A DNA stretch of 64,000 nt, from the IMG/VR virus record IMGVR_UViG_3300037248_000024, positions 1 to 64,000 of that record; one strand, given 5' to 3'. This DNA comes from a virus. The notes beneath the pieces are model-generated. The model saw only the letters and a program-made list of their open reading frames with translations, made no database searches and was not told where the DNA came from. A program made the translations under genes and the position numbers. Of the stretch, positions 2,698 to 60,453 are shown in pieces (the stretch's first letter is position 1; each line of letters begins with the position of its first letter).

Positions 2698-3609
2698 ATG
2701 GCAATCAATGTCGCGGCCCTCTACGATCTGACTCGCCCCGGCCTTCGCGGGATCGAGGGCAAATACAAGATGATTCCTCGGCAATGGCCGAAGTATCTGG
2801 AGCGCGGAACCTCCAAGATGGGGATCGAGCGCACCGCCGAAGTCCGCTTCGTCAGCCTGCCGCAGTTGAAGTTCGAGGGCGGCGCCACGGCGATGGACAA
2901 CAACGCCGGCGAACGCTTCATCTTCAACCACGAAGCGTTCGAGATCGGCTTGGGTTACGCGATGACCCGCAAGGCCATCGCGGACAACCTCTACGAGTCG
3001 CAGTTTCCGGCATCGAATCTCGGGCTTCAGAACAGCTTCGAACAGGCCGAGGAAATCTATTCGGCCAACGTGCTGAACAGTTCGACGACCTATAACCCGA
3101 ACATCGGCGGCGATGGCGTGGCGCTCCTATCCACCGCGCATCCCATCGACGGCGGAACCTACGCCAACACCTTCACCACGCAGTTGGACCTGTCCGAGGC
3201 ATCGCTGTTGCAGGCGCTGACCAACATGCGGACCAACTTCGTCGATCAGGCCGGGTTGAAAGTCTTTGCCCGCGGCAAGAAGCTTCTGGTGCCACCAGCA
3301 CTGGAATGGGTCGCGGCCCGGTTGTGGCATTCCACGCTGCGCGTTGGGACCGGCGATAACGACCCCAACGCGATGCGGGTCACCGGCTCGCTGAGCGACG
3401 GTTACGACGTGTTGGACTTCCTGACATCGTCCACATACTGGTTCGTGCTGTCGAACATTCCGGGGTTGATCTTCCTGGAACGGGAACCGTTTGAGATGTC
3501 GATGGAAGTGGACTTTATCACAGATAACCTCTTGGTAAAAGGATATCAACGTTATTATGTCGGATACTACAATCCGCGGGCCGTTTTTGGAAGTACGCCA
3601 AGTACGTAG
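2698..3609 (+). CDS. Major capsid protein (HK97 fold, Mu gpT-like)
   Basis: 303 aa; GGDGVALLSTAHP, LLVPPALE and terminal YQRY-GYYNPRAVFGS motifs; strongly C/G-ending codons. Confidence 0.85.
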   Translation: MAINVAALYDLTRPGLRGIEGKYKMIPRQWPKYLERGTSKMGIERTAEVRFVSLPQLKFEGGATAMDNNAGERFIFNHEAFEIGLGYAMTRKAIADNLYESQFPASNLGLQNSFEQAEEIYSANVLNSSTTYNPNIGGDGVALLSTAHPIDGGTYANTFTTQLDLSEASLLQALTNMRTNFVDQAGLKVFARGKKLLVPPALEWVAARLWHSTLRVGTGDNDPNAMRVTGSLSDGYDVLDFLTSSTYWFVLSNIPGLIFLEREPFEMSMEVDFITDNLLVKGYQRYYVGYYNPRAVFGSTPST

Positions 3610-3786
3610 TCTACAGCACGGTTTTTCGGTCACGATTGCGGACCGAGTAAAACCAGACTTAAATTCGGATTAACTGGAACCGCCTGAAAAGACACAATGA
3701 TAAAAGAGTTTCACAAGTCGGACTGTTCTGTCATTATCCTCGCAGATCGGCGCCCGTGTCGGGTGTCGCGCGAGGAGACCAGAGAC

Positions 3787-4761
3787 ATGCTGACTTTGGA
3801 GCAATATCAAGAAATCCTGGACTACAACCCTCAGACGGGGCGGTTTACCTGGAAAGTCGCCGCTGGCGGTAAACTGGCTGGGCGACGGGCGGGTAGTTTC
3901 CGCAACAATAACTACGGAATCGTGATTGAGGGTAAGATTACCTCAGGTGCGCGGTTGGCGTGGCTTTTCACTCATGGTGAGTGGCCGCCAACTCCGGTTC
4001 GGTTTGTCAGCGACGATCACCGCGACATCAGCATCGCAAATCTACGTCTGTCGGTCTCCAACGCCACGCGAGACGCACAAAAGCGCGAGGATATAGCGCG
4101 GCGGGCACGCGAGCGCGGGGCAACCTGGGGGCGAGAGCCAACCCAAGCCAGACTTCACGAGTTGTTTGTGTACGTTCCGGCTACAGGAAAGTTCTTCTGG
4201 AAGCACTCCAGCCAAGGTCGTACGCTGGGTGAACCCGCCGGCAGTGTTGACAACGGCCATATGGTTCTTCGCGTTGACGGTGTGAGCCATCAGCAACAAC
4301 GGCTGGCATGGATTTATGTTCATGGCGCCGTGCCTGATGGTCAGCGACTTCGTTTCGACAATGGGAATGGCCTGGACTGTCGAATCAGCAACCTCCGGCT
4401 GGCTCGCACGAAGGATGAGTCTAACGCGCTTTACCATGCGCGTCATCCTGGGGCGCGACGTGAAAACAGCCTTCACAAGTATGAAGGCATGACCACCGCC
4501 CGATACGAAGAGATGTTCACCGCACAGGGCGGCGTCTGCATCGTATGTTCTCAGCCCGAAACTCAGAAGCGGCTCGGCAAGCTGCGCCCATTGGTAGTTG
4601 ACCATCACCACGATAGCGGGATCGTGCGTGGTCTTTTATGCAGTCGCTGCAATACCATGATTGGATACGCACGCGAGAATGCGGAGCATCTGCGTAAAGC
4701 CGCTGATTTTGTCGATGACCACGCCGCGAAACGCCTTGATAAGAAAGACACCGCCGCATGA
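3787..4761 (+). CDS. Free-standing homing endonuclease: two degenerate HNH-like repeats plus endonuclease VII domain
   Basis: Repeats LDYNPQTGRFTW..RLAWLFTHGEWP..NLR and FVYVPATGKFFW..RLAWIYVHG..NLR; C-terminal CIVC..VDHHHDSGIVRGLLCSRCN; GAGGAG RBS upstream of ATG 3787. Confidence 0.8.
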   Translation: MLTLEQYQEILDYNPQTGRFTWKVAAGGKLAGRRAGSFRNNNYGIVIEGKITSGARLAWLFTHGEWPPTPVRFVSDDHRDISIANLRLSVSNATRDAQKREDIARRARERGATWGREPTQARLHELFVYVPATGKFFWKHSSQGRTLGEPAGSVDNGHMVLRVDGVSHQQQRLAWIYVHGAVPDGQRLRFDNGNGLDCRISNLRLARTKDESNALYHARHPGARRENSLHKYEGMTTARYEEMFTAQGGVCIVCSQPETQKRLGKLRPLVVDHHHDSGIVRGLLCSRCNTMIGYARENAEHLRKAADFVDDHAAKRLDKKDTAA

Positions 4762-21752: not shown

Positions 21753-24700
21753 GTGCCGGACGGCTGGTCACTGCAACCCGTTGAAGGCGATCCGTTCGCC
21801 GCACAATCAACGCCAGGGTGGAATTTACAGCCGGTCGAGGGCGATCCTTTTGCCGCGCCTCCCGCACAAGCGCCGCTTCATGGCTATGCTGGAACGGATC
21901 AAGCCGCGCATGTCCGTCAGTCTGTTACTCAGGCCGATGTTGACGCGATACCGGATCGGTCGGGGGATTTGAAGGACGCGGCACCCATTACGTCGATGGA
22001 TTCGACGATGACGGAGTATGGGCCGAGCGCGACGACGCCGGGTGTTGATCGTCTGGAACGAAACTATGACGTGACCGCGCGCAACATCGCGGAATCCGCC
22101 CGTCAGGCGTGGCAGGGACAACAACCCTTCATCACGCCTCAGGCGCAGCAATGGCTCCGCGACAAAGGCGTTCCCGACGCGGCGATCTCTACCCTCAACT
22201 CTCCGACGTACGCCCTGGCGGCGATGAACGCCATCATGCGCGGCGGCATCGAGGGGTTCCATTCGCTGTTGGAACCCGTGGTTGGAGAACAGGCGGCCCG
22301 TGACCTCTCCGCGATGCCGGAAGCGTTCCCCTTGGCCGGGCACGAACTCGGTGGGTTGGGTATCCCTGGCGCACCCCGATTGACCCAAGCCGAATCCGCC
22401 GCGATGTCTCAGGCTCAGGATTTCTCGCATCCATTCCTGGCCGGAAACGAAACAGATGCCACGATTGCCGGGCGTCAGATGCGGGAGGAACGCGAGGCGC
22501 TGAACGCACAGATGGAGGCGGCCGCACAGGCGAATCGTCCGAGGCTGACGGGGCCGGGCACTCCGGTGACGGAAGAAGCGCCAGCGGTTTCGCTCGCACC
22601 GGAAGCGCCGCTCCGCACTCCCATCACCCCCGAAGCCGCTGCCGCTACTGAAGCGGGAGAAACTGCTCCAACCTGGAACCTTGAACCCGTCGCGCATGAT
22701 CCGTTCGAGGCACCGCCCTCTCCCGTCGATGAGGCCGCTTCTCAGGCGGTTGAACCGACTCCAGCACAGGCGGAAGTCCCGGTTACCGCTGAATCGCCTT
22801 TATTGGAAGGCGAGGTCCTGCCGCCCGTCCTTCCCTACGCCATGTTCGACCCTCGCGATCTCACACTGGCTCCGGACACGTTCCAATACAAAGCCTCCGA
22901 TGAGCGCGGCGTGACCGGGGCGCTACGGGGCGCCACGCGGTGGGAGTCGGCGCTCGCCAACCCGATCACGGTCTGGCAGGCAAATGACGGAACCAATTAT
23001 GTCGTCAATGGCCATCAGCGCACCGATCTGGCATTGCGGGCGCAAGCCGCCGGTCAACCCGATGTCCAGATGCCAGCGCAGGTATTCCGTGAAGCCGATG
23101 GTTACACGCCGGAATACATGCGGGCGCTTGGCGCCTATCAGAACATTTCCGAGGGTAGCGGCACCGCGATTGATGCCGCCAAGGTGTTGCGGAGCGTTGG
23201 GCAAATCCCGGAGTCCAGGCGGTTGCCAGACTTACCACCGGGCGGCGAACTGGTGCGGCAAGGAACCGCACTGGCGAAACTGTCGCCCGAAGCGTTTGGG
23301 ATGGTCACGAACGAAATCGTGCCAGCCGCTTATGCCGCTCATGTCGGGGACCTGATTTCCGATCCTACCGAACAACTTGGCGCGCTACAGGTGTTGGCGC
23401 GTGCCGAACCGGCGAACTCGGCTCAGGCCAGGATCATGGTCCAGGATGCCGTCAATTCCGGTTTTGCGCGTGGTGTCCAAGGCGGACTGTTTGGCGAAGA
23501 AGCCTTCGCGCATTCGCTGATCCCAGAGCGGGCGCGTGTGCTGGACCAGGCGCTCCGGTCGCTACGCAAAGCCGGGGGCATCTATCGTGCCGCCGTCGAG
23601 GGCGAAGAACCTTTGACTTCCGCCGGGAATACCCTAAATCGTGAAGGGAATATTCAGGCGAGAACCGAAAATGGCCGACTTCTCGACATCCTCCAACGAG
23701 ACGCCACCACCCGAGGGCCAATCTCCGACGCCCTTTCACGGGCAGCAACCGATGTCGCCAGCGGCAAGCCAGTCGCCGGGGCATCCTCTCGCTTCCTCTC
23801 CAAAGCTCGGCAAATTGTCCGAAGCGGATCGGGAGCGGGCTTACGACCAGGCGATTTATCTCACGGCGTTGAACATCCGGCAGCGTCAGAGGTAGACCCC
23901 GCCGCCGCGTTCCGGGAGGAGCTGGGGCCTGGGTTGTTTGAGTCTCCCGTTCCTTTGTTTTCCCCCGTTGCCCGCGCCGTCGATGGGTTGAAGCAGGCCC
24001 GTGGGACCGGCGAGCAAATGCTGGCGCAGATCACGAAGACGCCAGGGGTTAAACCGGAAGAACTCGCGTGGATGGGATTGCCGGGATGGTTGCGGGATCA
24101 GAAGTCCGTGACGAAGGCGCAGATCGCGGATTTTGTTCGGGCGAATCAGTTGGATGTGAGGGAGGTGACACACCCAAGCGACGAACCGAATCAATTCACA
24201 GTGTCATCCGCCGCCGTGCCTGGAGGCCAGGGCGGAATGGCGAGGTTCAGGACTTACGATGAGGCATTGGCGGAATATTCCAGACGCCGGCAAGAGTATC
24301 CGAATGGATATCACAGCATTATGGAAATGCCGCCAGCAGGCACTCAACCGAAGTATAGCGGCTACACGCTTCCTGGCGGTTCCAATTATCGGGAGTTGCT
24401 GATTACGTTGCCGCCGAAGGCAACGACGCGTGAATCCGAACTGATGCGGGCTGCTGGCGCTCGTTTGCGGGCAGCGGAACAAGCAGAACTTGATGCGAGA
24501 GCGCGCGGCTTCGACGTGACGCGCATGGGCAACCTGACCGATGCGACTGACCGAGCGCGCGCCGCATTCGACCGCGCGCGAGAAGCCGTCAAACAAGCGC
24601 GTGGCCAGGTTTACCGCTCTCCCCACTGGGAAGAACCCAACGTCCTCGCGCATGTGAGATTTGATGAGCGGACCGCGCCGGATGGGGCGCGCGTGCTGAT

Positions 24701-27700
24701 GGTGCATGAGGTGCAATCCGACATGCACCAGGCTGGAAGAAAACGTGGATATTATAACAGCACGAAACCTTGGGAAGTATTCAATCCCGTCGACGGAGCG
24801 CCGGTCGCACGCTTCGCCACCGAAACAGAGGCGCGGGCCGATGCGAGGCGCAGAGGCGACGGATTTGATTTCGCGCGGGGAGACCAAGGCCGCGCCGCCA
24901 ATGCCATCCCCGACGCCCCCTTCAAAACCACATGGCCCGCGCTCGCGATGAAACGTATCATCAAACTCGCGGCGGATAACGGATTCGATCGTGTGGCGTG
25001 GGCGCCGGGAGAAGTGCAGGCGGATCGGTATGATCTGTCGAAACACATCAACCGTCTCGATTACGTTCCGAGCGAAAACACAATCTGGGCATACGATAAA
25101 AATGATCGCATCGCTCATACGATCCGCGATGTCACGCCCGAAAACATGGCGGACAAGATCGGCAAGGAAGCCGCTGAGAAGTTACTGGCGCAACCGGATC
25201 GCGCGCCCGTGACTGGCCCGATTCATGAAGGGCGGATGTGGAAGCGTCTTGAAGGCGCGGACTTGAAGGTGGGCGGCGAAGGCATGAAAACCTTCTATGA
25301 CAAAATGCTGCCAGCCGAAGTGAATAAGATCACGGGGCGGTTTGGCGCGAAGGTGGGGACGAGTGAAATAGCCACACACGACAAAGGGCCAGAAGGTGCG
25401 TGGATAGTTGAGCCGCCGGATCGTTCATGGCAACAGCGATTCAATACAGAGCAAGATGCAGAAGAATGGGCTAGACTTTCAGCGCGAGGATTTGGTCTCA
25501 CTCCGGAGGATATGACGGCAACGTTTGTTGGTAAGCCAGTTCTGCAACCCGTCCACTCCCTCGACATAACCCCCCGTCTTCGTTCCGCCGTCCAGTCCGA
25601 GGGGTTGGGGTTGTTCGCCGGTCGTCGCCTCCCCGCCCCACCACCCGCTGGCCAGGACCTCTTCGGCACCACCCGTGTCGCGTCAGCCCAGCGCACCCCA
25701 GAACCCACGATCCGCACCGATCAACGCCAGGCCGTCATGCCGGGTATGGAACCGTCAGCGATCCAGGCGCAGGCCGCACGGGATAACGCCCCGCCAAAAT
25801 CAAACCAACTCGCACCGAATGAGGGATTGTTCGCGCGCCAAGAACCCGTGCAGCCGCAACTCCCCACACGCACGTCCCGCTACCTCAACACCTCCCCCTT
25901 CACCGACGAACTCCACGAAGCCCCGCTCACTGGCCACGAAGCCGCCGCCGATTGGGTGTTCAACAGAGGCCGAGACACCGGACACGAACACGTCGCCGTG
26001 GTCGATAACCGCACCGGAGAGATTATCCATGCCGGAACCAGCGGCCTCGCGGATGAAGTCAAATGGAAGGGCGATAATGGCACTGATCTGCCGCCCGACA
26101 GCCTGACGATCCACCACAACCACCCCAACGGGTCCGCGCTGTCTGGACCTGACATCGGGATGCTGACAAATCCCGCGATCAGTCATGTCGTCGCGCATGG
26201 GGCAAATGGAACGACGACCGTTGCCTCTCTGGTCCCGAAGTGGAAACCGGAAACTACGGAGCAGATGGTTCCGTTGTTGCGATCAATTAACAGCGCACGT
26301 TTTCATGCCCACACCATCGCCCGATCTCTGTTGCAAGACCTCGTGAACAAGGACGCCATCTCCGGTCCCGTTGCCGATCTCGCCTATGAAGATGTCACCA
26401 ACCGCTTGCTTCATGCCGGTGGCGTCATCAACTACGCCTCCACGCTCGACCTAGCCGCGCCAATCAAGGCGGCGCTCGCCCCCGTATTGAGGAACCTTGG
26501 CCATGCCGATGCAACACATGATCGATATACCGTCGCCGTTCCGCCCGAGGAACGAACAGCAAGCCTTCCTGCGCCGGTTGCTGGCGATGCCGGAGAAGTC
26601 GCCCGAAATCCAGGACGCGATCAGAACGGTGCGGGCGAATCTGGCACCTCTGGGGAACGCCGCGGAGGCGGTGAGGGGGTTGAAGGGGGCGAGGCCACCC
26701 AAGGCAGCCTGAGCGCGGGTGAACCGCTAACCCCCGCCCAACGCGCCGTCCTCGCGCATAACTCCCGCAATGGTCCGTTGCCGCCACGCGAGATGCCGAA
26801 CCTGGTCGAGCAAGGGCCACCGAAACCGCCCAGAGAAGCGCGCGCCAGCCCCAGCCCAAGCGACGAACTCCCCCTCCGCGAACCGCCACAACCCGCCCAG
26901 GGGCACAACGGTGGTCCGCCGATGCCGCCCGATTCCCTATGGCCGCCGGATCAGCAGCCGCCGAAACGCCCACCGCCACCGCCGGAGATCGAGGCGGCAC
27001 GCATTACGGCGCCAGCCGCCACGAAAAACCTGAACCCCGTCGAGAAGTTGACGATCTTTCCGCAGACCCTCGCCAATCTCGACAATATGTCGGCGCGGCT
27101 TTGGAACTCGTGGCAGGCGCGCGAACGGACGGAGAGCACGAACGCCGCCGAACTGCGCGGCATTATACAGCCGAACTTTCTGAAACTATCGAAACCGGAT
27201 CGCCTCAAGGTGGCCGGAGCGCTGGAAATAGCGCGCATCGAAGGCGCGGAAAGTCTGGTCGAAAATCCGGACGGCACGATCACCGCGCACAACGGTTCCA
27301 TCCCGCACGCCAACTGGTCGAAGGTGGGCGACAGCATCCAACTCACCCCACAGCAAACCGCAGCCTATCACGAGGCCGTGCAACTTGGTCGCGATCAATG
27401 GACGATGCTGCAACGCGCGGCGGCGAAACGATATGGCTGGGATGGCGCCCTTGATCCAGCCGCCATACGCGCCGAAGCGCAGTCACGCGGCGAGCCGGGT
27501 GACTATCATCGGCTGAACCGTTTGGCTGACCTCTTGGACGTGATGCGGTCAAACCAGCAGGAAATCTACTTTCCCATGCAGCGGTTCGGATCGTATTTCA
27601 TCGCGATCCGTCCAAAGGCCGGAGAAGGCGTCATCGAAAATCTCGGTGGTCATCCGCCCCTGGCGTGGTTCGAGACCGTCGAAAAGCCAGCATTCCAGGA

Positions 27701-29759
27701 TTTGCTTGGGGCAACACGAGGCGCGGTTTCGGTTCAGGCGCGCGCGGCGAAACGAATCGCGGAACTGGAAAAAGATTTCCCGCCGGATAAATTCGACTAT
27801 CAGCACGGCGACTTCGCGCGGACCCCACAACTCCTGCGCCAACTCAATATTCCCGCCGTCGAAAAACTGTTCATGTTGATGGAGAACAAGGTCAAGGCCG
27901 GGATGACCGACGCCGTGATGCGCGGCGATAACCCGCCGACCACGAAGCAAGGTATTCGTGAGGAAGCGAAGAACCGTTATGATGCGTTACACGGGTCCAC
28001 ACTGGAAGCATTTTATGATGCGCTGTTCGAGGAACTGAAGTCGGGATATCGGCGTCGAGCAAAGGTTGTGCCTGGTTACTCCCAAAATTTTGATAGGGCC
28101 ATCAGCAGCCATCTCTATCAGATCGCTCGCAATGCCGCCGACACGGTTCACCGCGATAGTATCGAGTCAGACTATCAGAACATCCAGGATTATCATTCCC
28201 ACCAGAACGTCAAAAACTATTGGCGTGACTGGCGTGCTTATCAGGAAGACCCCGGATCGCCGTTGTCTCGCGCGGCGGCGACGATGAACCAGATCGGATT
28301 CGCCTACATGCTGGGGATGAATCCCTCGTCCACCATGATCATCGCGTCCCACATGCCGATGACGGCGGCGCCCGTGCTGTCGGTTGGGGTTGGACCTCGC
28401 GTGGCGGTTCCGGCGCTGGCACGCGGCCTGCGGTCGGCTTATGGCGCGCTGAAATTCGACACTGTTCATGGTGGCCAGATTGACCTTGAAAAGGCGATGG
28501 CGGGGATGCCGCCGGAGAAGCAGGCGTTTCTTCGTAAAATGGCGCAGGAGGGGCGCTTGGCTGCTGTCGGCACCCATGACATGGCGGCGCTAAACGATAA
28601 ACTCGCTCCTTTATTCCATGATCATGCCGATCTGGCGCGGCGTGCCATGGAGATCGCGACCTCGAATGTTCACGCCGTCGATCAGGCGAACCGGTTCGCC
28701 GTGGCCTCGGCGGCGTGGGACATCGCCTCCAATCCGGCGCACTTCAACGCCGCGGCAGCGCCGCTGATGCGGCACAATGCCGCCTTCCGCGAAATGGTCG
28801 CCCGCGAGATGGGCCTGTCGCCCGAGTCCTACGGTCGCTTCATGCTGTCCAGGGCCGCGTTCGATTGGGGGAAAGCGAATCAGGCGCCGATCATGCGCGG
28901 GCCTCTGGGCCAACTGATGTTCGCGCTGCATGGGTTCCAGACCCGGTATCTCTCGACCGCGTTCAACCTGATGAAGAACAGTGGACCGGAAGGAAGGCTT
29001 GGATTCTACCTCATGATGGCGGCGTTGTTCGCGGGCGCCGGGGCATTTGGACTGCCGTTCTCTCAGGATGCGTTGAAGGGGGCGGATGAGGTTTACAAGC
29101 ATTTTACCGGACGTGATCCCGCGCTGAAATTCAAAATCCACGACTTCATCCAGGATCATGGCTTTGGCGAGGCTGGCGCTGATATTCTCCTTGATGGCGC
29201 GGCCTCTTATGGGACCGGCATCAATCTTGGTTCTCGCATCGGATTTGGCGATGTCCTGCAACGGGAGTTCGAGAGCACCAATGTTCTCGGCACGATCCCG
29301 TCCATAGCATGGAATGCCTATTCAGGGGCATCCCTGCGATACGAAAGTGGTCAACCAGCGGCGGCGGTCGCGGCGGAAGCGGTCCCGGCGGCACTTCGTG
29401 GACCGCTGCGCGCGCTCGCCGCCTCGCAACAAGGGATCGTCAGTCGTCAAGGCATCGAACAGGTTCCCCCGGAAAATATCAGCAAAGCCGATATCGCCAA
29501 GATCGCGGCGGGATTTCAGCCTCTGGTCGCACAAAAACGCGCGGAAGAAACCCAGCGCTATATCGCCGCCCGGTCTCCCGACGCATGGCGCGACATGATC
29601 AGGAATGGCCAACAGGCCGAAGCCATCAAACAGATGAAAGCGGCCGGGTGGACGCCGGGTCGCGTCGAGGGCTTCATCTTCCAGGCCCATCGTCCTCCCG
29701 GTCCTGGCGTTCAGTTCAGGAATTTCGAACGCAACCGAACCGTTGCCCCGCCCCCCTGA
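21753..29759 (+). CDS. Large polyvalent internal virion protein (ParB-like, EVQSD domain, JAB/MPN, PLxRFG)
   Basis: 2668 aa; VVNGHQR (about 23000), HEVQSDMHQ (about 24710), HHNHPNGSALSGPD (about 26110), YFPMQRFGSYF (about 27570). Confidence 0.8.
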   Translation: MPDGWSLQPVEGDPFAAQSTPGWNLQPVEGDPFAAPPAQAPLHGYAGTDQAAHVRQSVTQADVDAIPDRSGDLKDAAPITSMDSTMTEYGPSATTPGVDRLERNYDVTARNIAESARQAWQGQQPFITPQAQQWLRDKGVPDAAISTLNSPTYALAAMNAIMRGGIEGFHSLLEPVVGEQAARDLSAMPEAFPLAGHELGGLGIPGAPRLTQAESAAMSQAQDFSHPFLAGNETDATIAGRQMREEREALNAQMEAAAQANRPRLTGPGTPVTEEAPAVSLAPEAPLRTPITPEAAAATEAGETAPTWNLEPVAHDPFEAPPSPVDEAASQAVEPTPAQAEVPVTAESPLLEGEVLPPVLPYAMFDPRDLTLAPDTFQYKASDERGVTGALRGATRWESALANPITVWQANDGTNYVVNGHQRTDLALRAQAAGQPDVQMPAQVFREADGYTPEYMRALGAYQNISEGSGTAIDAAKVLRSVGQIPESRRLPDLPPGGELVRQGTALAKLSPEAFGMVTNEIVPAAYAAHVGDLISDPTEQLGALQVLARAEPANSAQARIMVQDAVNSGFARGVQGGLFGEEAFAHSLIPERARVLDQALRSLRKAGGIYRAAVEGEEPLTSAGNTLNREGNIQARTENGRLLDILQRDATTRGPISDALSRAATDVASGKPVAGASSRFLSKARQIVRSGSGAGLRPGDLSHGVEHPAASEVDPAAAFREELGPGLFESPVPLFSPVARAVDGLKQARGTGEQMLAQITKTPGVKPEELAWMGLPGWLRDQKSVTKAQIADFVRANQLDVREVTHPSDEPNQFTVSSAAVPGGQGGMARFRTYDEALAEYSRRRQEYPNGYHSIMEMPPAGTQPKYSGYTLPGGSNYRELLITLPPKATTRESELMRAAGARLRAAEQAELDARARGFDVTRMGNLTDATDRARAAFDRAREAVKQARGQVYRSPHWEEPNVLAHVRFDERTAPDGARVLMVHEVQSDMHQAGRKRGYYNSTKPWEVFNPVDGAPVARFATETEARADARRRGDGFDFARGDQGRAANAIPDAPFKTTWPALAMKRIIKLAADNGFDRVAWAPGEVQADRYDLSKHINRLDYVPSENTIWAYDKNDRIAHTIRDVTPENMADKIGKEAAEKLLAQPDRAPVTGPIHEGRMWKRLEGADLKVGGEGMKTFYDKMLPAEVNKITGRFGAKVGTSEIATHDKGPEGAWIVEPPDRSWQQRFNTEQDAEEWARLSARGFGLTPEDMTATFVGKPVLQPVHSLDITPRLRSAVQSEGLGLFAGRRLPAPPPAGQDLFGTTRVASAQRTPEPTIRTDQRQAVMPGMEPSAIQAQAARDNAPPKSNQLAPNEGLFARQEPVQPQLPTRTSRYLNTSPFTDELHEAPLTGHEAAADWVFNRGRDTGHEHVAVVDNRTGEIIHAGTSGLADEVKWKGDNGTDLPPDSLTIHHNHPNGSALSGPDIGMLTNPAISHVVAHGANGTTTVASLVPKWKPETTEQMVPLLRSINSARFHAHTIARSLLQDLVNKDAISGPVADLAYEDVTNRLLHAGGVINYASTLDLAAPIKAALAPVLRNLGHADATHDRYTVAVPPEERTASLPAPVAGDAGEVARNPGRDQNGAGESGTSGERRGGGEGVEGGEATQGSLSAGEPLTPAQRAVLAHNSRNGPLPPREMPNLVEQGPPKPPREARASPSPSDELPLREPPQPAQGHNGGPPMPPDSLWPPDQQPPKRPPPPPEIEAARITAPAATKNLNPVEKLTIFPQTLANLDNMSARLWNSWQARERTESTNAAELRGIIQPNFLKLSKPDRLKVAGALEIARIEGAESLVENPDGTITAHNGSIPHANWSKVGDSIQLTPQQTAAYHEAVQLGRDQWTMLQRAAAKRYGWDGALDPAAIRAEAQSRGEPGDYHRLNRLADLLDVMRSNQQEIYFPMQRFGSYFIAIRPKAGEGVIENLGGHPPLAWFETVEKPAFQDLLGATRGAVSVQARAAKRIAELEKDFPPDKFDYQHGDFARTPQLLRQLNIPAVEKLFMLMENKVKAGMTDAVMRGDNPPTTKQGIREEAKNRYDALHGSTLEAFYDALFEELKSGYRRRAKVVPGYSQNFDRAISSHLYQIARNAADTVHRDSIESDYQNIQDYHSHQNVKNYWRDWRAYQEDPGSPLSRAAATMNQIGFAYMLGMNPSSTMIIASHMPMTAAPVLSVGVGPRVAVPALARGLRSAYGALKFDTVHGGQIDLEKAMAGMPPEKQAFLRKMAQEGRLAAVGTHDMAALNDKLAPLFHDHADLARRAMEIATSNVHAVDQANRFAVASAAWDIASNPAHFNAAAAPLMRHNAAFREMVAREMGLSPESYGRFMLSRAAFDWGKANQAPIMRGPLGQLMFALHGFQTRYLSTAFNLMKNSGPEGRLGFYLMMAALFAGAGAFGLPFSQDALKGADEVYKHFTGRDPALKFKIHDFIQDHGFGEAGADILLDGAASYGTGINLGSRIGFGDVLQREFESTNVLGTIPSIAWNAYSGASLRYESGQPAAAVAAEAVPAALRGPLRALAASQQGIVSRQGIEQVPPENISKADIAKIAAGFQPLVAQKRAEETQRYIAARSPDAWRDMIRNGQQAEAIKQMKAAGWTPGRVEGFIFQAHRPPGPGVQFRNFERNRTVAPPP

Positions 29760-50735: not shown

Positions 50736-52220
50736 TCATCCCTCCGTCTCCGGCCGTCCGGCGTGGGGGCAGTCGATGCGTGTGCAGTGACCATAGTGTT
50801 TGCACGCTAATTGATATTTGCAATCCCCCGGCGGCCACGCGGGTTCCGGTGCCGGGGCGAAGGCGGCAGCCTTACGCTTCAGTGCCTCCCAAGCAAAACG
50901 GTCGTCAATCTCTTCGACCTTTATGCAATTCCCGTCTTTTGTCATAGCAACAAAAAGGAAGCGTACTTTGTTGATATGATAATGGTTCATTCCGACGATA
51001 GACCAGTCTTTAAGTTCCGGATAGTTCCACGGAGCCGTCCACTCCGGCGCCTTCGCCCCCGCGTCCACCACGTTGCCCAACATAACATCCAGCGCGGAAT
51101 GCGCGGAGATGTGTCCCGCGTCGACGGCATCAAGATCGCGCAAATGATTCGTCGTCCACAAATCCCTCTCCTCCCGCGTGAGATCGTGTGGCGCCAAAGC
51201 GTGCATGATATCGAACCGTTCGGGTGATTTATATTTCGCGGCGGCGACTCTGAGCGCGTCGTTTGGTTCTGGTGGATTTTCCAGTGCGGCGATGAAAGCC
51301 GCGCTGTCGCGTGGGCTGAGTGTCCAGTTGGTTCCGGTGACACGGGCGGTGTCGGCGGTCGAACCGAGGTCAGCATGTGGTTGAGCAAACATAGGATCGG
51401 GGTTGCGCGGTTCATTCCCCGTCAAGGAGGTCTTGGTGTAATGACACTCTCCATCCCGCAGGCAATTCGCACGCTGATCACAACCGTCCTGAACACCGCA
51501 GCGAGACCAATCTACCGGCAGTTGTTGCTGTACGTGCGCTTTGGTCGAACCGAGGTCGCCGGCGAGGGGGTCGTCACCGGGCGTATATCTGGAAGAAATA
51601 CAACCATCGTAGCCATAGGTCCAACCTTCGCCAGGAATCGCATCTGGACCGCTCATTCTGAGCCATTGGTCGGGAGTGATTGGTTTCATGCCAGGAATTA
51701 CCAACGCGTCGAATAAAGCCTGTGTAAATCGAGGGGGCTTCGTGCACTCAAGATAAGCCGCCGCCGCCTTGTGCGTACTTTGCTGTAAATCGTCATTGAT
51801 CGCACTCGGCCAAAAGTCCACGCATTCTTGCAGCAGCTTTCTCAGTCGTGCAATTTCGATCAGGTATAGAGGTGGTTCATAGTTTCGTCCGCGCGCACGG
51901 TCGGCGGCGGCGAGGGCTGTTTCTACGGCCGCATGGGGAATGTCAAAATTAGAGACATGGAAACGGTTTCTTCGCAACCAGATGTAAAGTTCTGACCGCG
52001 CCGCCTCAACCGCGTCGCCCGGCACGGCGGACGTGGCGGGTTCGCGGCCGCGCATGGCGGCTTCACACCGGAGCCAACCGCAAATAAAATTACGCGCGGC
52101 GATAGAATTATCGTCCGCCCCTGGATTGAACAGTCGCCAAGCGGCCAACGCTTTCATTTCTCGCGCGTCACTTGAGCTCGGCGTCATTCGTCCGGTCATG
52201 TCCTGGGGTCCTTGTGTCAT
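50736..52220 (-). CDS. Mosaic hypothetical protein containing a DUF1778 (TacA/AtaR) C-terminal-like segment
   Basis: TLSPRDSAAFIAALENPPEPNDALRVAAAKY at about 51230-51340; two Cys clusters. Confidence 0.55.
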   Translation of the reverse strand: MTQGPQDMTGRMTPSSSDAREMKALAAWRLFNPGADDNSIAARNFICGWLRCEAAMRGREPATSAVPGDAVEAARSELYIWLRRNRFHVSNFDIPHAAVETALAAADRARGRNYEPPLYLIEIARLRKLLQECVDFWPSAINDDLQQSTHKAAAAYLECTKPPRFTQALFDALVIPGMKPITPDQWLRMSGPDAIPGEGWTYGYDGCISSRYTPGDDPLAGDLGSTKAHVQQQLPVDWSRCGVQDGCDQRANCLRDGECHYTKTSLTGNEPRNPDPMFAQPHADLGSTADTARVTGTNWTLSPRDSAAFIAALENPPEPNDALRVAAAKYKSPERFDIMHALAPHDLTREERDLWTTNHLRDLDAVDAGHISAHSALDVMLGNVVDAGAKAPEWTAPWNYPELKDWSIVGMNHYHINKVRFLFVAMTKDGNCIKVEEIDDRFAWEALKRKAAAFAPAPEPAWPPGDCKYQLACKHYGHCTRIDCPHAGRPETEG

Positions 52221-53179
52221 GCGGGCATCGCTTTGTGTTCGCGGCCGTCAAGTAGGGAGCCGGCGAGTTTCTTGCCGAAGTTCTGCATTGGGCTATCGAG
52301 ACACTTCGGAACCGCCAGTATCGCGGAATCATTGCGGCCACGATCATAGGGTGCCCAACTTCCCCACTGCTTAAAAAAGTACGGCACACCGTTCGCCGCG
52401 CACCAGTCCCGAGTTGCCCGGTGCCAATCAGGATGTGATGGCCGCGCGCCCGGGCCGCTCTCCCCGCCCGATACCATCCATTTGATGAACTCCCAGCCGG
52501 GCCAGTTGATAGAGCCAAGCGCTGGTTCATAGCTGACCCAGGTGTTCCAGCCCATGCGTGCGAGGGCTTCCAGGTGCGGACGGCGTTCGTCGGCTTCTTG
52601 CTGGCGCTCGGCGCTGGCGCCGATCCAGACGTTCGGCATCCCACCATGAAAGCGATCGATGGTCTCTTCGCGAAAAGGAATTGCTTTGAGAGGGTAAGTC
52701 GTTTTCACGCCGCCGCTCGTGCGGCTCTGAAACTCCAACATAATCGCCTGGGCCATCCCGCCGATGTTGCCCATCATCGTCTTTCGGCTCCGCAGGTAGG
52801 CAAGTAGCCGCTCGGGGCGCTTGGTTAAAATCTGATAGCGATGCCAATGGGCTAGCGTAATGGCGGCGAATATGCGATCCAGCATCTCGTCCGTCACGCC
52901 TTCGTGCCCGATGTCCCCGTGCGCGGCCACGAAAATGTCTCGTGGCTCTTTCCATCGCAGTGGCTGATCGAGCCATTGTTCATTGAACCGAACTTCGCCG
53001 GTCCAGATATGGTTGCCGTTGACCTCTCGGGTCAGCCCGGCGCGGGACGAATGGTTGCGTAACCGTGTTCCAGCAAGACGCATCGCATAGCAGTTCGTGC
53101 AGCCGGGTGATTTGATCGAGCAACCGGTCACGATCTGCCAAGTCGCATCCGTCCATTCGATATGCGTGCCGTCACCCAT
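52217..53179 (-). CDS. DUF5131 / phage Gp37-Gp68 radical-SAM-like protein
   Basis: IEWTDATW..GCSIKSPGCTNCYA, YQILTKRP, SYEPALG, GGESGPGARP, FFKQWG. Confidence 0.9.
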   Translation of the reverse strand: MGDGTHIEWTDATWQIVTGCSIKSPGCTNCYAMRLAGTRLRNHSSRAGLTREVNGNHIWTGEVRFNEQWLDQPLRWKEPRDIFVAAHGDIGHEGVTDEMLDRIFAAITLAHWHRYQILTKRPERLLAYLRSRKTMMGNIGGMAQAIMLEFQSRTSGGVKTTYPLKAIPFREETIDRFHGGMPNVWIGASAERQQEADERRPHLEALARMGWNTWVSYEPALGSINWPGWEFIKWMVSGGESGPGARPSHPDWHRATRDWCAANGVPYFFKQWGSWAPYDRGRNDSAILAVPKCLDSPMQNFGKKLAGSLLDGREHKAMPA

Positions 53180-56239: not shown

Positions 56240-56693
56240 CTCATCCTCCCCAAATCAAAGTCAGCACCACCATCAACAAATCGAACGCCAGCACCGCGAT
56301 AATCAATGGCCACGCGCGACCGAAGGCGGCGCGGAGGGCGATGGGGTGGATCACGACGCCCTCGGATCATTACATTCGCCTGACGGATTACAAGAACGGC
56401 AATGCGGGCAGATATAGCCGTGGGCTACGAGCCGATCCCCCTTGCATCGCGTGGTTTTGGGACCAAAAGCTCTGCATAACCGGAGCATGTCCTGCTCATC
56501 AGGATCGAGTGCGTCAACCGGAGGCGATACTGGCTTGTCCCGTGGCACCGGAGCGGCCCAAGGTTTCCAGAACATGGCGCCTCCCTGAGTTTCCAGAAGC
56601 GCTATCCAGGTCGTTCCATCATCGGCAAGGGCCAGCGTGTCATCGCCAGCCGCCACCAGTTGGATTATCTTGCGTGTCATTGCGTCCTCCCCA

Positions 56694-57623
56694 TCACGCC
56701 ATGTGCTCCACACAAACCGCGCGCTGAAACTTCCCATCCAGCCGCATTCGAGGTGCGAAGCCGCCGCACCAATACCAGGACTGCGCGATGATCTGTTGCA
56801 ACCGATCGACCGGCGCGCGGGTGACCATGGCGACGCCATCCACCAGTTCCGTTATTGCGTTCGCCGGTCTGAAGTCATCAGCGAGCATCCCGGCGCGATC
56901 TGCTTCAACTAGCGCGCCCGCGCCGCAAATATATATTCGCCGCACGAGGCGCTGACTCAGGGCCGGGTGTTGCTCAACAAACCATTCCGTGGTCGGCAGA
57001 AAACGAACGCCCAGGAAATCGTTGACCATTCCCTTGCGGAAGACCTGGTTGGCCGATGCCGCACCTTGAAACAATGCCCTAAAGTCAGGATCGGAGAACA
57101 ACTGACGGGCCGAAACCGGGTCCAGGTGGCAGTTAAACGCTCCATCGATTTGCGGAACACCAGCATTCAAAAGTTCCGCGACGCCATCAAGCAGCGCTTG
57201 CATGGTCAGAAGATCGCCAGCCAACAATTCAGCCGTTTCGCTCCGGCGATTGACACGGAACACTGAATCCGGGTCGGCTTCGAAGCCGCGGCGCAAGGCG
57301 TTCCGAGCGAGTTCGTCGAGGCTTCGCGCGGCCTGTTCGCCGTTGGTGTATGCGTTTTGTAAGAACTGGCTGGCGATGCCAACGCGCGCGACCATCATAT
57401 TGAGGTCGCTGATGGCGGCATAGTGATTGACCTGAAATTCCGCGATTTCGTTGCCGGCTGTAAAATCACCCTCCTGACCGATACCCACATCCGTATCAAT
57501 ACGATCAGCACAGAGCCGGTAGGATTTACGTGAGTTCAGCGCCTGCTCGAACTCGCGCGCCAGGAACCCTTGCTGGATGAGAGGTTGAAGCATGGCGGGG
57601 AAGTTTCGGATATTGTCTTTCAT
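56694..57623 (-). CDS. Second, shortened major-capsid-like protein (DUF4043/N4-gp56-like)
   Basis: NFPAMLQPLIQQGFLAREFEQAL, VGIASQFLQNA..GEQAARSLDELARNAL, LDPVSARQLFSDPDF, PVDRLQQIIAQSWYW, RAVCVEH; recalled from Acetobacteraceae prophage capsids. Confidence 0.7.
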   Translation of the reverse strand: MKDNIRNFPAMLQPLIQQGFLAREFEQALNSRKSYRLCADRIDTDVGIGQEGDFTAGNEIAEFQVNHYAAISDLNMMVARVGIASQFLQNAYTNGEQAARSLDELARNALRRGFEADPDSVFRVNRRSETAELLAGDLLTMQALLDGVAELLNAGVPQIDGAFNCHLDPVSARQLFSDPDFRALFQGAASANQVFRKGMVNDFLGVRFLPTTEWFVEQHPALSQRLVRRIYICGAGALVEADRAGMLADDFRPANAITELVDGVAMVTRAPVDRLQQIIAQSWYWCGGFAPRMRLDGKFQRAVCVEHMA

Positions 57624-57946
57624 CGTGACATTCCTTCCATTCTCAGAAACGCCTCTTTCGCCTCATCGGGTGCCTTTGGCAGCAGCCGGACCATCACCGG
57701 GCCATTCCTCATATTGCCTGTCATCAATCCATGCAAAGCGGACATTTCGGTCGTATTCAGGTTGCGCCACTTCTGAATGTCGTAATTTCCGAACAGGATG
57801 CCGCGAGGGTCTCCGCGTTGCTTTCGGCCAACACTAAACCCACGAGCGGCGAGCCACGCCTCCGCTTCTCTGCAAGCGGCAAAATCGCCCGGCTTATCAA
57901 ATCGGATGCCGTGGCGGAGAAGTTCTGTTTTAACTGAATCGTCCAT
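57620..57946 (-). CDS. Conserved phage protein
   Basis: FDKPGDFAA..GFSVG..PRGILFG.YDIQKWRNL..G.MRNGPV. Confidence 0.6.
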   Translation of the reverse strand: MDDSVKTELLRHGIRFDKPGDFAACREAEAWLAARGFSVGRKQRGDPRGILFGNYDIQKWRNLNTTEMSALHGLMTGNMRNGPVMVRLLPKAPDEAKEAFLRMEGMSR

Positions 57947-58608: not shown

Positions 58609-58923
58609 CTATGGGGCGATTCCTGAGTTGTAATCTTCCTCATGGTTTGGTCCCATTTCGCTCTCAAGCCACGCCTTGTATTCATCGCTCGCATCACCAA
58701 GGCATGCCCGGAATTCCATTTCGCCGTTATCCCACCGGGCAATATAAACTTTGACGGGCGTGCCTTTCAGAATACGGACAACCTGATCCAGAACCCATGC
58801 CTTGTGGTGGTCTCCGTCGATTTGTCCGTATTGCTCGATCCAATGGAGCGCCCATTGCTCTTTGGTGCAGCCCGCGAATGGGCCGTCATCATCGATCAAT
58901 GTTTCACCAAGATAGCCTTCCAT
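58609..58923 (-). CDS. Conserved phage protein
   Basis: YGQIDGDHHKAWVLDQVVR..GIAP. Confidence 0.6.
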   Translation of the reverse strand: MEGYLGETLIDDDGPFAGCTKEQWALHWIEQYGQIDGDHHKAWVLDQVVRILKGTPVKVYIARWDNGEMEFRACLGDASDEYKAWLESEMGPNHEEDYNSGIAP

Positions 58924-59084: not shown

Positions 59085-59260
59085 GGTCTGGGCGAGGGCG
59101 CAGATTGACATGCTCTGCTCCTTTCGGATTCAGATTTCCGAAGCTCGACATCAAGCCGTCCTCCGGATGCTTCCTGCTTCGTCCGGTCCTTTAGGAGGAT
59201 GTCCGTCCACAGGCTTCAACGCGCTGTCCGCGCGCCGTAGTATGATGATCGCCGCGTTGG
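59085..59260 (-). ncRNA. Putative TnpB omegaRNA (scaffold ending at ATGTCAA/59105, guide about 59104-59085)
   Basis: Overlaps tnpB 3' end; GGAAATCTGAATCCGAAAGGAGCAGAGCATGTCAA resembles IS200/IS605 right ends; 5' limit is approximate. Confidence 0.6.
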
Positions 59261-60356
59261 TGTCGGCATTGGCTTCGTATCCGCATCCTGTGCAGACAAA
59301 CCGTACCTGATCCTGTCGGCTTCGTGCATCCACCACGCCACATTCAGCGCACGTCTGGCTTGTGTATGCGGCTGGAACTTCGATGAGCCTGCCACCACGA
59401 TCCGCCAGCTTGTAGGCCAGCATGGTCCGGAAACCGCCCCATCCCTGATCCAGAATGGCACGGTTCAGCGCTGCCTTTTGCCGGACCATCCTGCCCGGTT
59501 CGGCTGCGGTGCCTTTCGCAGATGCGGTCATGTTCCGCACCTTCAATGCCTCCAAAACGACAGCGCCGTGGTTCTTGGCGATGTCAGTTGAAACCTTATG
59601 GAGGAAGTTCTTACGGGCGTTCGCCACCCGCATCTGTATCTTCGCCACGCGGCGGATGGCCTTGCGGCGATTGGACGAACCGCGCTTCTTGCGGCTCAGG
59701 TCGCGTTGCGCCTTCCGGAGCGCCCGGAGCGCCTTTTTGCCGCAGTTCACCGGGGCGATGTTGACGCCGTTGGACAACGCGGCGAATACAGCGACGCCGC
59801 GATCAATTCCGACCGCTGGCAGAGTGGATGGCGCTGGATCAACTATCTTGTGCTGCCATTGAACGGAGACGCGCCATTGTCCCGCGTGGCGTGAGACAGT
59901 CGCGTTGCGAATGTCTCCAACAACGCGGCGCCAACCTCGAAATGAAATCCACCCTAGTTTTGGCAGTTTAATACGTCCAGAAGAGTTGCCGGTGCGTTCA
60001 ATCCTAAAGGCCTCCGGGTGCGGAAACCGAAAGCTATCATTCAACCCCTTCTTACGCGGCGTTGGGTACCCGGAACGACTCTTCCACCAGTTCTGATAGG
60101 CTTTGTTGAGGTCCATCATCACCTGATGCAACGCATCCGCCGGTACATCCCTAATCCAATCAACTTGCCTTCGAAGCATGGTGACTTCACGGCACTGACT
60201 GGCAAAATTGATCCCCCGTCCGGCGCGGCCAAAAGTCCGCCGCTGTTCCAAGGCGAGGTTGTAGACGAACCGGCACGCACCCGCGAATCGCGCCATTTTC
60301 TGCGATTGCTCGGATGTCGGGTAGAGCCGATAGGTGTTGGCCTTGCGAATAATCAT
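59151..60356 (-). CDS. tnpB: TnpB RNA-guided endonuclease (IS200/IS605 family), no tnpA
   Basis: YRLYPT..GACRFVYN; RuvC VGIDRG, VLEAL, NADTNAA; Zn ribbon TSQTCAECG..CTGCG. Confidence 0.92.
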   Translation of the reverse strand: MIIRKANTYRLYPTSEQSQKMARFAGACRFVYNLALEQRRTFGRAGRGINFASQCREVTMLRRQVDWIRDVPADALHQVMMDLNKAYQNWWKSRSGYPTPRKKGLNDSFRFPHPEAFRIERTGNSSGRIKLPKLGWISFRGWRRVVGDIRNATVSRHAGQWRVSVQWQHKIVDPAPSTLPAVGIDRGVAVFAALSNGVNIAPVNCGKKALRALRKAQRDLSRKKRGSSNRRKAIRRVAKIQMRVANARKNFLHKVSTDIAKNHGAVVLEALKVRNMTASAKGTAAEPGRMVRQKAALNRAILDQGWGGFRTMLAYKLADRGGRLIEVPAAYTSQTCAECGVVDARSRQDQVRFVCTGCGYEANADTNAAIIILRRADSALKPVDGHPPKGPDEAGSIRRTA

Positions 60357-60362
60357 AGGCGC

Positions 60363-60453
60363 ACCATGCCAGACTCCAATCCGCGATGCAATAGCAAAAT
60401 CGCACAATCCGCGAAATTATTGCCTTGACCCTCCCAGGAACCTCGTATAGGAT
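60363..60453. promoter_or_regulatory. Divergent leaderless promoters with two CAATCCGCGA direct repeats
   Basis: Plus: TTGACC-N17-TAGGAT-N7-ATG(60461). Minus: TTGCAT-N17-CATGGT-N6-ATG(60356). Repeats at 60377-60386 and 60405-60414. Confidence 0.6.

Follow-up and report, generated by a model that had tools for sequence, protein, structure and literature searches.

The P0001 locus and its capsid relatives

The DNA analyzed here comprises bases 1-64000 (the window) of the IMG/VR virus record IMGVR_UViG_3300037248_000024, a phage genome of 98,050 bp (G000) that has a 127-bp direct terminal repeat and a completeness rated as 100%. No tyrosine integrase was found in the record. The minus strand of the window harbors a gene for a protein of 309 amino acids (aa), P0001, which is a trimmed derivative of the capsid protein of another type of element (Table 1). 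The fold and the parent family of this protein are already known. New is that a conserved, trimmed derivative of this capsid protein occurs as an orphan among the early genes of unrelated phages, and no description of such a derivative was found in the literature searched.

The reading frame of P0001 is open over its entire length, and the sequence GGAAGGA is present 8 nt before the ATG. Since the start of P0001 overlaps the stop of an upstream 108-aa open reading frame (ORF) and the next ORF starts after a gap of only 13 nt, P0001 is the fourth gene in a series of small, closely spaced genes that runs leftward. Its translation is coupled to that of the upstream 108-aa ORF. The major capsid protein of G000 itself is Mu gpT-like and is encoded about 53 kb away from P0001 on the opposite strand. 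BLASTP revealed no similarity of P0001 to this protein or to any other G000 product, and the ORFs of 54-60.4 kb gave no match to head families in PHROGs or Pfam. The preliminary description of the locus had claimed an intact 309-aa ORF with a ribosome-binding site, a distant and unrelated own capsid gene on the other strand, and no further head genes among the nearby accessory genes, and all of this was borne out.

Table 1. Features of the P0001 locus and of the G000 genome. Positions are those of the window unless marked as genome or as another locus.
Feature	Position	Strand	Remarks
309-aa trimmed capsid-derived gene P0001	56694..57623	-	Open frame, 309 codons; HK97 fold, N4-gp56-like class (supported by predicted structure)
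E-loop stub, residues 45-66	57426..57491	-	Short hairpin where long forms have a 28-residue excursion; alignment and DSSP
Linker RRGFEADPDS, residues 111-120	57264..57293	-	In place of the ~94-aa insertion; alignment, long model
Shortened C-terminal loop, residues 290-300	56724..56756	-	11 aa fewer than long forms; alignment
Shine-Dalgarno GGAAGGA	57632..57638	-	8 nt ahead of the P0001 ATG; direct sequence reading
Upstream 108-aa ORF, no family match	57620..57946	-	Stop overlaps the P0001 start (ATGA)
Downstream 109-aa ORF, no family match	56351..56680	-	Start 13 nt past the P0001 stop, preceded by GGGGAGGA
Promoter-like site, 9/12 matches	58741..58770	-	Head of the four-gene run ending in P0001
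TnpB (IS605 OrfB; HTH, OrfB, Cas12f1-like TNB domains)	59151-60407	-	1.5 kb upstream of P0001
DUF5131 (phrog_2045) protein	52217-53179	-	Same leftward arm, further downstream of P0001
494-aa mosaic protein	50736-52220	-	Short TacA-antitoxin-like segment, residues 300-331
Own major capsid protein, 303 aa, Mu gpT-like	2698..3609	+	phrog_371, E 1.6e-7; ESM Atlas features 0.99 to Mu GpT clusters
Sak4-like (phrog_124) ATPase	genome 71268-72227; L085:2417-3337; L179:1654-2568		46-56% identical between phages
TerL of G000	genome 90218-91870		Outside the window
Portal of G000	genome 92676-94973		Outside the window

More than 2,600 database proteins matched P0001. Nearly all of them have a length of 440-442 aa (long forms in the following), and the 440-aa forms were found at E ~1e-110. 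Named long forms are listed as 'DUF4043 domain-containing protein [Acetobacteraceae bacterium]', a label that follows the naming of the source databases. P0001 also matched PHROG 1357 'major head protein' (E 8e-21), and its relatives in cultured phages are annotated capsid proteins (45% identity for Ralstonia phage Raharianne and 41% for the Komagataeibacter phages phiKX1/2). In Pfam, no family matched P0001 at E <= 1, the models for encapsulin and for PF13252 (DUF4043/Phage_capsid_3) included. Likewise, Pfam gave no match for the 442-aa form P0014 at E <= 0.001 and none for the short relatives P0121 and P0146 at E <= 0.01. We concluded that P0001 derives from the 440-aa capsid protein that is encoded by prophage-like particle elements of Acetobacteraceae. 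The gene is foreign to the phage: its relatives are the capsid proteins of Acetobacteraceae elements, and the capsid protein of G000 itself is unrelated. A decayed head module was considered as the source of the gene and was rejected. Since tblastn of 12 neighboring ORFs against about 160 long-form loci gave no match, P0001 is a lone capture and not the last remnant of such a module.

Over the common columns, the core of P0001 and the 442-aa form are 64% identical. Identity was 69% in the N-arm, 79% in the spine helix, and 67-75% in the A-domain blocks, and it dropped to 32-42% at the junctions. P0001 keeps the N-arm, the spine helix, the P-domain, and the A-domain core. In the alignment to the 440-442-aa forms, three segments are absent from P0001: 28 aa of the distal E-loop after VGIG(Q/E), an insertion of about 94 aa, rich in beta strands, that follows ELARNAL and the spine helix in the long forms and has the linker RRGFEADPDS in its place, and a loop of 11 aa ahead of the C-terminal RAVxxEH. 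The three segments sum up to 133 aa, which equals 442 minus 309. It had been proposed earlier that three segments were lost at these sites and replaced by short linkers. The alignment located the losses where they had been claimed, but the E-loop is cut to a stub and not simply replaced.

AlphaFold2 predicted the short form P0001 with a pLDDT of 94.4 and a pTM of 0.90, and the long form with a pLDDT of 90.2. In Foldseek searches, both models matched HK97-fold phage capsids (Pan3, N4, GP4, LME-1), and encapsulins were ranked lower. P0001 matched the N4 capsid with E 6.5e-10. Its best match in BFVD was an N4-gp56 family capsid protein (E 1.5e-16, TM 0.65), and the ESM Atlas features of P0001 gave a value of 0.98 to N4 gp56-type capsids. 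The predicted structures support that P0001 has the HK97 fold and belongs to an N4-gp56-like class, with N4-type capsids as the closest. The N4 gp56-type capsids (PDB 9e99; PF13252 Phage_capsid_3, formerly DUF4043) are the best structural class for P0001, which differs from them in being only 9-16% identical to the structures, in having no Pfam match, and in not being a head-module gene. Of the original assignment to DUF4043/N4-gp56-like capsids, the relatives in Acetobacteraceae and the N4-gp56 class, by structure, were retained, but the Pfam model matches neither the short form nor the 442-aa form.

The secondary structure assigned by DSSP was in agreement with the position of the missing segments. 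The long form shows hairpin strands at 49-55 and 84-90 around the 28-residue excursion, and a beta-rich domain (residues 144-237) is located between the spine helix (109-140) and the A-domain. In the short form, the E-loop is a hairpin of the strands 51-56 and 59-64, which leaves a stub of about 14 residues, and the spine helix (83-116) runs almost straight into the A-domain. We infer the names 'E-loop' and 'insertion domain' from the HK97 topology.

Short forms in unrelated phages

P0001 belongs to a family of about 16 short forms, which comprises 15 intact database proteins (258-314 aa) and a protein of 317 aa encoded at locus L179. Their identities range from 31 to 86%, and the insertion is absent from all members. 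A word-indexed search yielded P0002 (308 aa, 86%), P0003 (310 aa, 81%), and P0004 (303 aa, 69%), together with the more distant P0007 (310 aa, 60%) and P0019 (292 aa, 59%). The HMMER search, which was exhaustive over 1.84 billion representative proteins, added P0121, P0122, P0123, P0130, P0135, P0145, P0146, P0156, and P0174 (258-314 aa, identity down to 31%). The short forms have 11-26 residues at the insertion site versus 93-156 in the long forms, and 5-30 residues in the E-loop region versus 43-62. In P0145 and P0156, the E-loop region consists of 5-7 residues and the E-loop is essentially absent; a complete loss is confined to such distant members. Variants of the insertion-site linker are conserved in P0001-P0004, P0019, and P0122. 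The intermediates P0124 (400 aa) and P0150 (415 aa) combine a short E-loop with a retained insertion and are placed among the short forms in trees. In P0123 (425 aa), the short-form body follows a Cys/His-rich N-terminal extension of 109 aa, which represents either a fusion or a mis-called start.

No short form was present in 50,697 cultured phage records when four different short forms were used as queries. Scans of metagenomes with P0001 and with P0150, and viral scans with P0001, P0002, P0272, and P0150, gave no further short-form loci. A motif scan for G[FY]YNCY returned long forms plus the phage fragment G001 only, and a spacing-specific DNA pattern led to one new short form, L179.

The genomic context was readable for three short forms, those of G000, G001, and L179. 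G001 is a 35-kb linear myovirus fragment from IMG/VR with 50% GC and holds P0145 (263 aa, 40% identical). Its own head and tail genes, for TerL, portal, a Mu-F-like protein, protease, a phrog_264 capsid, sheath, tape measure, and baseplate, are found at 0-20 kb. The P0145 gene is located about 27 kb from the capsid gene of G001, on the other strand, and about 0.8 kb upstream of genes for a Sak4-like annealase/ATPase and the single-stranded DNA-binding protein (SSB). L179 is a viral contig of 5.6 kb, and its 317-aa short form has 58% identity to P0001 and 65% to P0007. The short gene follows small ORFs with an overlapping start and is found about 0.9 kb upstream of a Sak4-like gene. This Sak4-like ATPase was the only other L179 gene for which BLAST against G000 and G001 detected a homolog. 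The same comparison found no homologs of head genes on L179, the ORFs of which were not scanned against families.

G000 and G001 are otherwise unrelated. The short capsid gene product and the Sak4-like ATPase are the only proteins they have in common, and the flanking small genes showed no conservation between the two. While the Sak4-like gene lies about 0.8-0.9 kb downstream of the short gene and on the same strand in G001 and L179, the distance in G000 is about 14 kb, and the genes are on opposite strands. Each of the three readable contexts shows the short gene as an orphan that is surrounded by early or accessory genes. Equal-length homologs in complete head operons, which the preliminary description had named as evidence against its own interpretation, were not found in these contexts; what was found instead is a family of short forms with an orphan gene in 3/3 contexts.

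For the phylogenetic trees, the trait columns were excluded and the calculation was restricted to core columns. Short and intermediate forms were placed beside or among the Acetobacteraceae-type 440-aa forms and away from other long-form lineages. None of 200 bootstrap trees showed a single clade of short forms, which were scattered around the Acetobacteraceae long forms. One clade of short and intermediate forms was, however, not rejected by the approximately unbiased (AU) test (p 0.24). The terminal branches of the short forms (0.25-2.0 changes per site) are much longer than those of the Acetobacteraceae long forms (0.03-0.08).

The GC content at third codon positions (GC3) is 0.65 for P0001, compared to a mean of 0.64 (sd 0.08) for the phage and to 0.74-0.91 in eight long-form genes. 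The codon composition of P0001 is ameliorated and matches the phage, not the donors. Since the GC3 of P0001 equals the phage mean, unlike that of the long forms, we concluded that the gene has resided in phage genomes for a long time. For P0001 versus the short forms of L179 and G001, the rate of nonsynonymous changes (dN) was 0.35-0.64 and synonymous sites (dS) were saturated, hence no dN/dS ratio is given. These values fit purifying selection. Together, the data support that the trimming is maintained by selection and that the gene is functional rather than decaying.

The full-length element and the possible roles of P0001

The long form is the working capsid gene of an operon for TerL, portal, scaffold, capsid, and sheath. 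At locus L042, the order is TerL, portal, scaffold, 440-aa capsid, small genes, and tail sheath. The 440-aa Acetobacteraceae capsid is a clear homolog with the same HK97 N-arm, spine helix, and P-/A-domains as P0001. The difference is that P0001 is encoded outside of the TerL-portal-scaffold-capsid operon and in a phage that uses another capsid family. Relatives are encoded by 353 stretches of species-representative genomes. The 80 top-ranked of these 353 are all long forms, from Acetobacteraceae, Rhodopila, Acidisphaera, and Rhodospirillales, including Rhodopila globiformis DSM 161 and Acidisphaera rubrifaciens HS-AP3, and no short form was seen among them. Matches were present in 154 of the 301 sampled genomes of the Rhodopila globiformis family, mostly as a single gene covered by three separate segments, the pattern that marks the long form. 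Among the matches listed, two short open frames were rejected as candidates for short forms, as they are frameshifted long forms. In L177 (G027:C1:3184500-3188500) and L178 (G224:C17:257500-261000), the long-form gene is split over two frames, which reflects either an error in the assembly or a frameshift that has turned the gene into a pseudogene.

The genes upstream of TerL vary between the element-bearing genomes (TGT, alcohol dehydrogenase, CoaE), and the collinearity from TerL across four chromosomes (L180-L187) extends over only about 23-29 kb. In none of five large assemblies was a tyrosine integrase found within about 18 kb of the long-form capsid gene; the nearest ones resemble XerC/D. 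Because of the short collinearity, the varied upstream genes, and the lack of a nearby tyrosine integrase, the resident cluster of about 24 kb may be structural-only, defective-prophage-like, or similar to a gene transfer agent (GTA). When 20 kb around P0001 were compared to the genomes of the R. globiformis family, DNA matches were seen for P0001 (66-72% over about 400 bp), for TnpB (67-68%, in several genomes), and for two short spots elsewhere. An Acetobacteraceae-like host is compatible with these data. The long form, with matches in about half of the sampled genomes of the family in which the phage probably lives, is a plausible target for P0001.

We favor, with a probability of roughly 35%, that P0001 acts by assembly interference and blocks head assembly of the resident DUF4043-type element. 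P0001 would be made early as a soluble mimic of the capsid subunit of the rival. It could then engage the assembly partners of the rival, with the A-/P-domain faces contacting neighboring subunits or the conserved N-arm contacting the scaffolding protein. The E-loop of HK97-type capsids reaches across neighboring subunits, and added domains in such capsids commonly stabilize contacts within or between capsomers. P0001 would not be able to provide the contacts of E-loop and insertion domain that lock subunits and capsomers, and would cap or derail head assembly of the DUF4043-type element in the infected cell. Resources and lysis timing would be left to the infecting phage.

Interference with assembly by homologs or mimics has precedent, since the Ccm protein of SaPIbov5, a homolog of capsid proteins, redirects capsid assembly of its helper phage phi12 (PMC8569155, PMC5052747) and since Tai systems interfere with tail assembly (PMC11364771). 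Like Ccm, P0001 is a capsid homolog that is encoded on one mobile element and is related to the capsid of another, the target of P0001 being one that we infer. Different from P0001, Ccm belongs to a satellite that needs the capsid of its helper and builds usable small capsids. P0001 is carried by a phage that is complete, having TerL, portal, and a capsid of its own, and it lacks the distal E-loop and the insertion. A broader version of the proposal, which we regard as rather doubtful, would be that unrelated phages exchange P0001-like proteins as an anti-particle weapon, a trimmed capsid subunit made early in infection and directed against the head assembly of a resident structural-only, possibly GTA-like or defective-prophage system in about half of the Acetobacteraceae species.

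Several observations weigh against the assembly-poison role, which is plausible by homology, trimming, and precedent. For the putative host of G000, the links to Acetobacteraceae consist only of P0001, the TnpB match of 67-68%, and the two short DNA matches. With their far longer branches, the short forms do not visibly track the Acetobacteraceae long forms. The identity between distant short forms and any sampled long form amounts to only about 40-44%, for example for P0145 in the 50% GC genome of G001. Such proteins would be poor mimics, unless the matching long-form targets are among those that were not sampled. A subunit without a full E-loop might also fail to enter capsomers. Of no weight on either side is a predicted complex of long and short form, run without controls, which reached a median score of 0.26 versus a mark of 0.32. 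Finally, the occurrence of a Sak4-like ATPase beside the short gene in 3/3 contexts hints at a link to DNA metabolism instead.

This last point leads to an alternative that we consider unlikely, namely that the HK97-fold core has taken on a non-capsid task in the early recombination/replication module, either together with the Sak4-like ATPase or as a platform for DNA ends or host factors. The ATPases of the three contexts are 46-56% identical, the gene is found close downstream and on the same strand in G001 and L179, and its product is one of the two proteins common to G000 and G001. However, the two genes are far apart and on opposite strands in G000, and Sak4-like genes are common in early regions of phages, which makes three co-occurrences a weak argument. 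Conservation of the non-globular N-arm and of the capsomer-forming core is about the same as in the remainder of P0001, which fits a retention of capsid-type contacts, and the HK97 fold is not known to act in recombination. It appears quite unlikely that P0001 serves as an immune decoy or sponge, an early capsid look-alike that would occupy a capsid sensor of the host or a prophage without triggering it. Capsid proteins repeatedly act as triggers of CapRel, Thoeris, and CBASS-type systems (PMC13728456), the short gene is found among early or accessory genes in the three contexts, and the long branches would suit an arms race. The capsids of G000 and G001, however, belong to other families, and no sequence similarity was detectable either between the two or between them and the short form. 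This weakens the decoy explanation, because a copy from a third family would not resemble the carriers' own capsids to a sensor. Moreover, PADLOC defense models gave no match for P0001, P0145, or eight neighbors, no conserved neighbor suggests a partner, and a phage decoy of this type was not found in the literature searched.

That P0001 would assemble by itself into a small shell or an encapsulin-like compartment, or would join the phage's own head as a minor or vertex component, is very improbable. HK97-fold proteins of 260-310 aa do build shells, such as the LME-1 capsid (288 aa) and the encapsulins, both of which were among the Foldseek matches, and the N4-gp56 family includes capsid proteins of about 320-346 aa. 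Yet the E-loop is a stub in P0001 and essentially absent in P0145 and P0156, and in both G000 and G001 the gene is far from the head module and on the other strand. Co-assembly in G000 would also require P0001 to pair with a capsid protein to which it shows no similarity. Encapsulins differ from P0001 in that the latter has no match in Pfam, encapsulin models included; no cargo gene is conserved next to it, as the flanking small genes are not conserved, and encapsulins rank below phage capsids in Foldseek. We see hardly any chance that P0001 is a decaying remnant of a captured capsid gene without function, even though the gene is an orphan and lacks parts of the parent protein. The frames are intact in all of the about 16 diverged short forms, which have the deletions in common, and unrelated phages show the same arrangement. 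The predicted fold has a high confidence (pLDDT 94), the start is coupled and preceded by a ribosome-binding site, the composition is ameliorated, and dN is far under the saturated dS. The proposal that selection rather than decay had shaped the gene was upheld by the intact short forms, their orphan contexts, GC3, the predicted fold, and the dN values.

Capsid proteins are usually read as structural proteins, and a family of trimmed capsids as early accessory genes would represent a new category of auxiliary functions of phages. If P0001 poisons the head assembly of a rival, it would represent the first case of a phage carrying a counterpart to the satellite protein Ccm and would provide a tool to shut down the production of prophage or GTA-like particles. 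If it is exchanged as an anti-particle weapon, capsid-mimicry warfare of a virus against a resident particle would be a general and so far unrecognized class of accessory functions. Independent of its role, automatic annotation will mislabel the short forms as 'major capsid protein', which leads to mis-called head modules. The question is directly testable, since the cultured strains Rhodopila globiformis DSM 161 and Acidisphaera rubrifaciens HS-AP3 carry the full-length element.

Other genes and features of the phage genome

The weak promoter-like site near the start of the four-gene run is called from its match to the consensus alone, and such sites are no commoner in the region than in shuffled sequence. 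The other ORFs of 54-59 kb are small and mostly without family match. None of the ORFs around P0001, the DUF5131 protein and the 494-aa protein included, gave a match to a head, defense, or other informative family. We considered whether P0001 is cargo of the TnpB element and rejected this, as G001 and L179 have no TnpB homolog.

Directly 3' of the capsid gene of G000, an HNH/endonuclease VII-like protein of 354 aa is encoded (window 3697-4761, plus strand). The virion module comprises a protein of 2,668 aa (window 21753-29759, plus strand) with portal-associated/ParB-like, DarB-like antirestriction, and endolysin-like segments.

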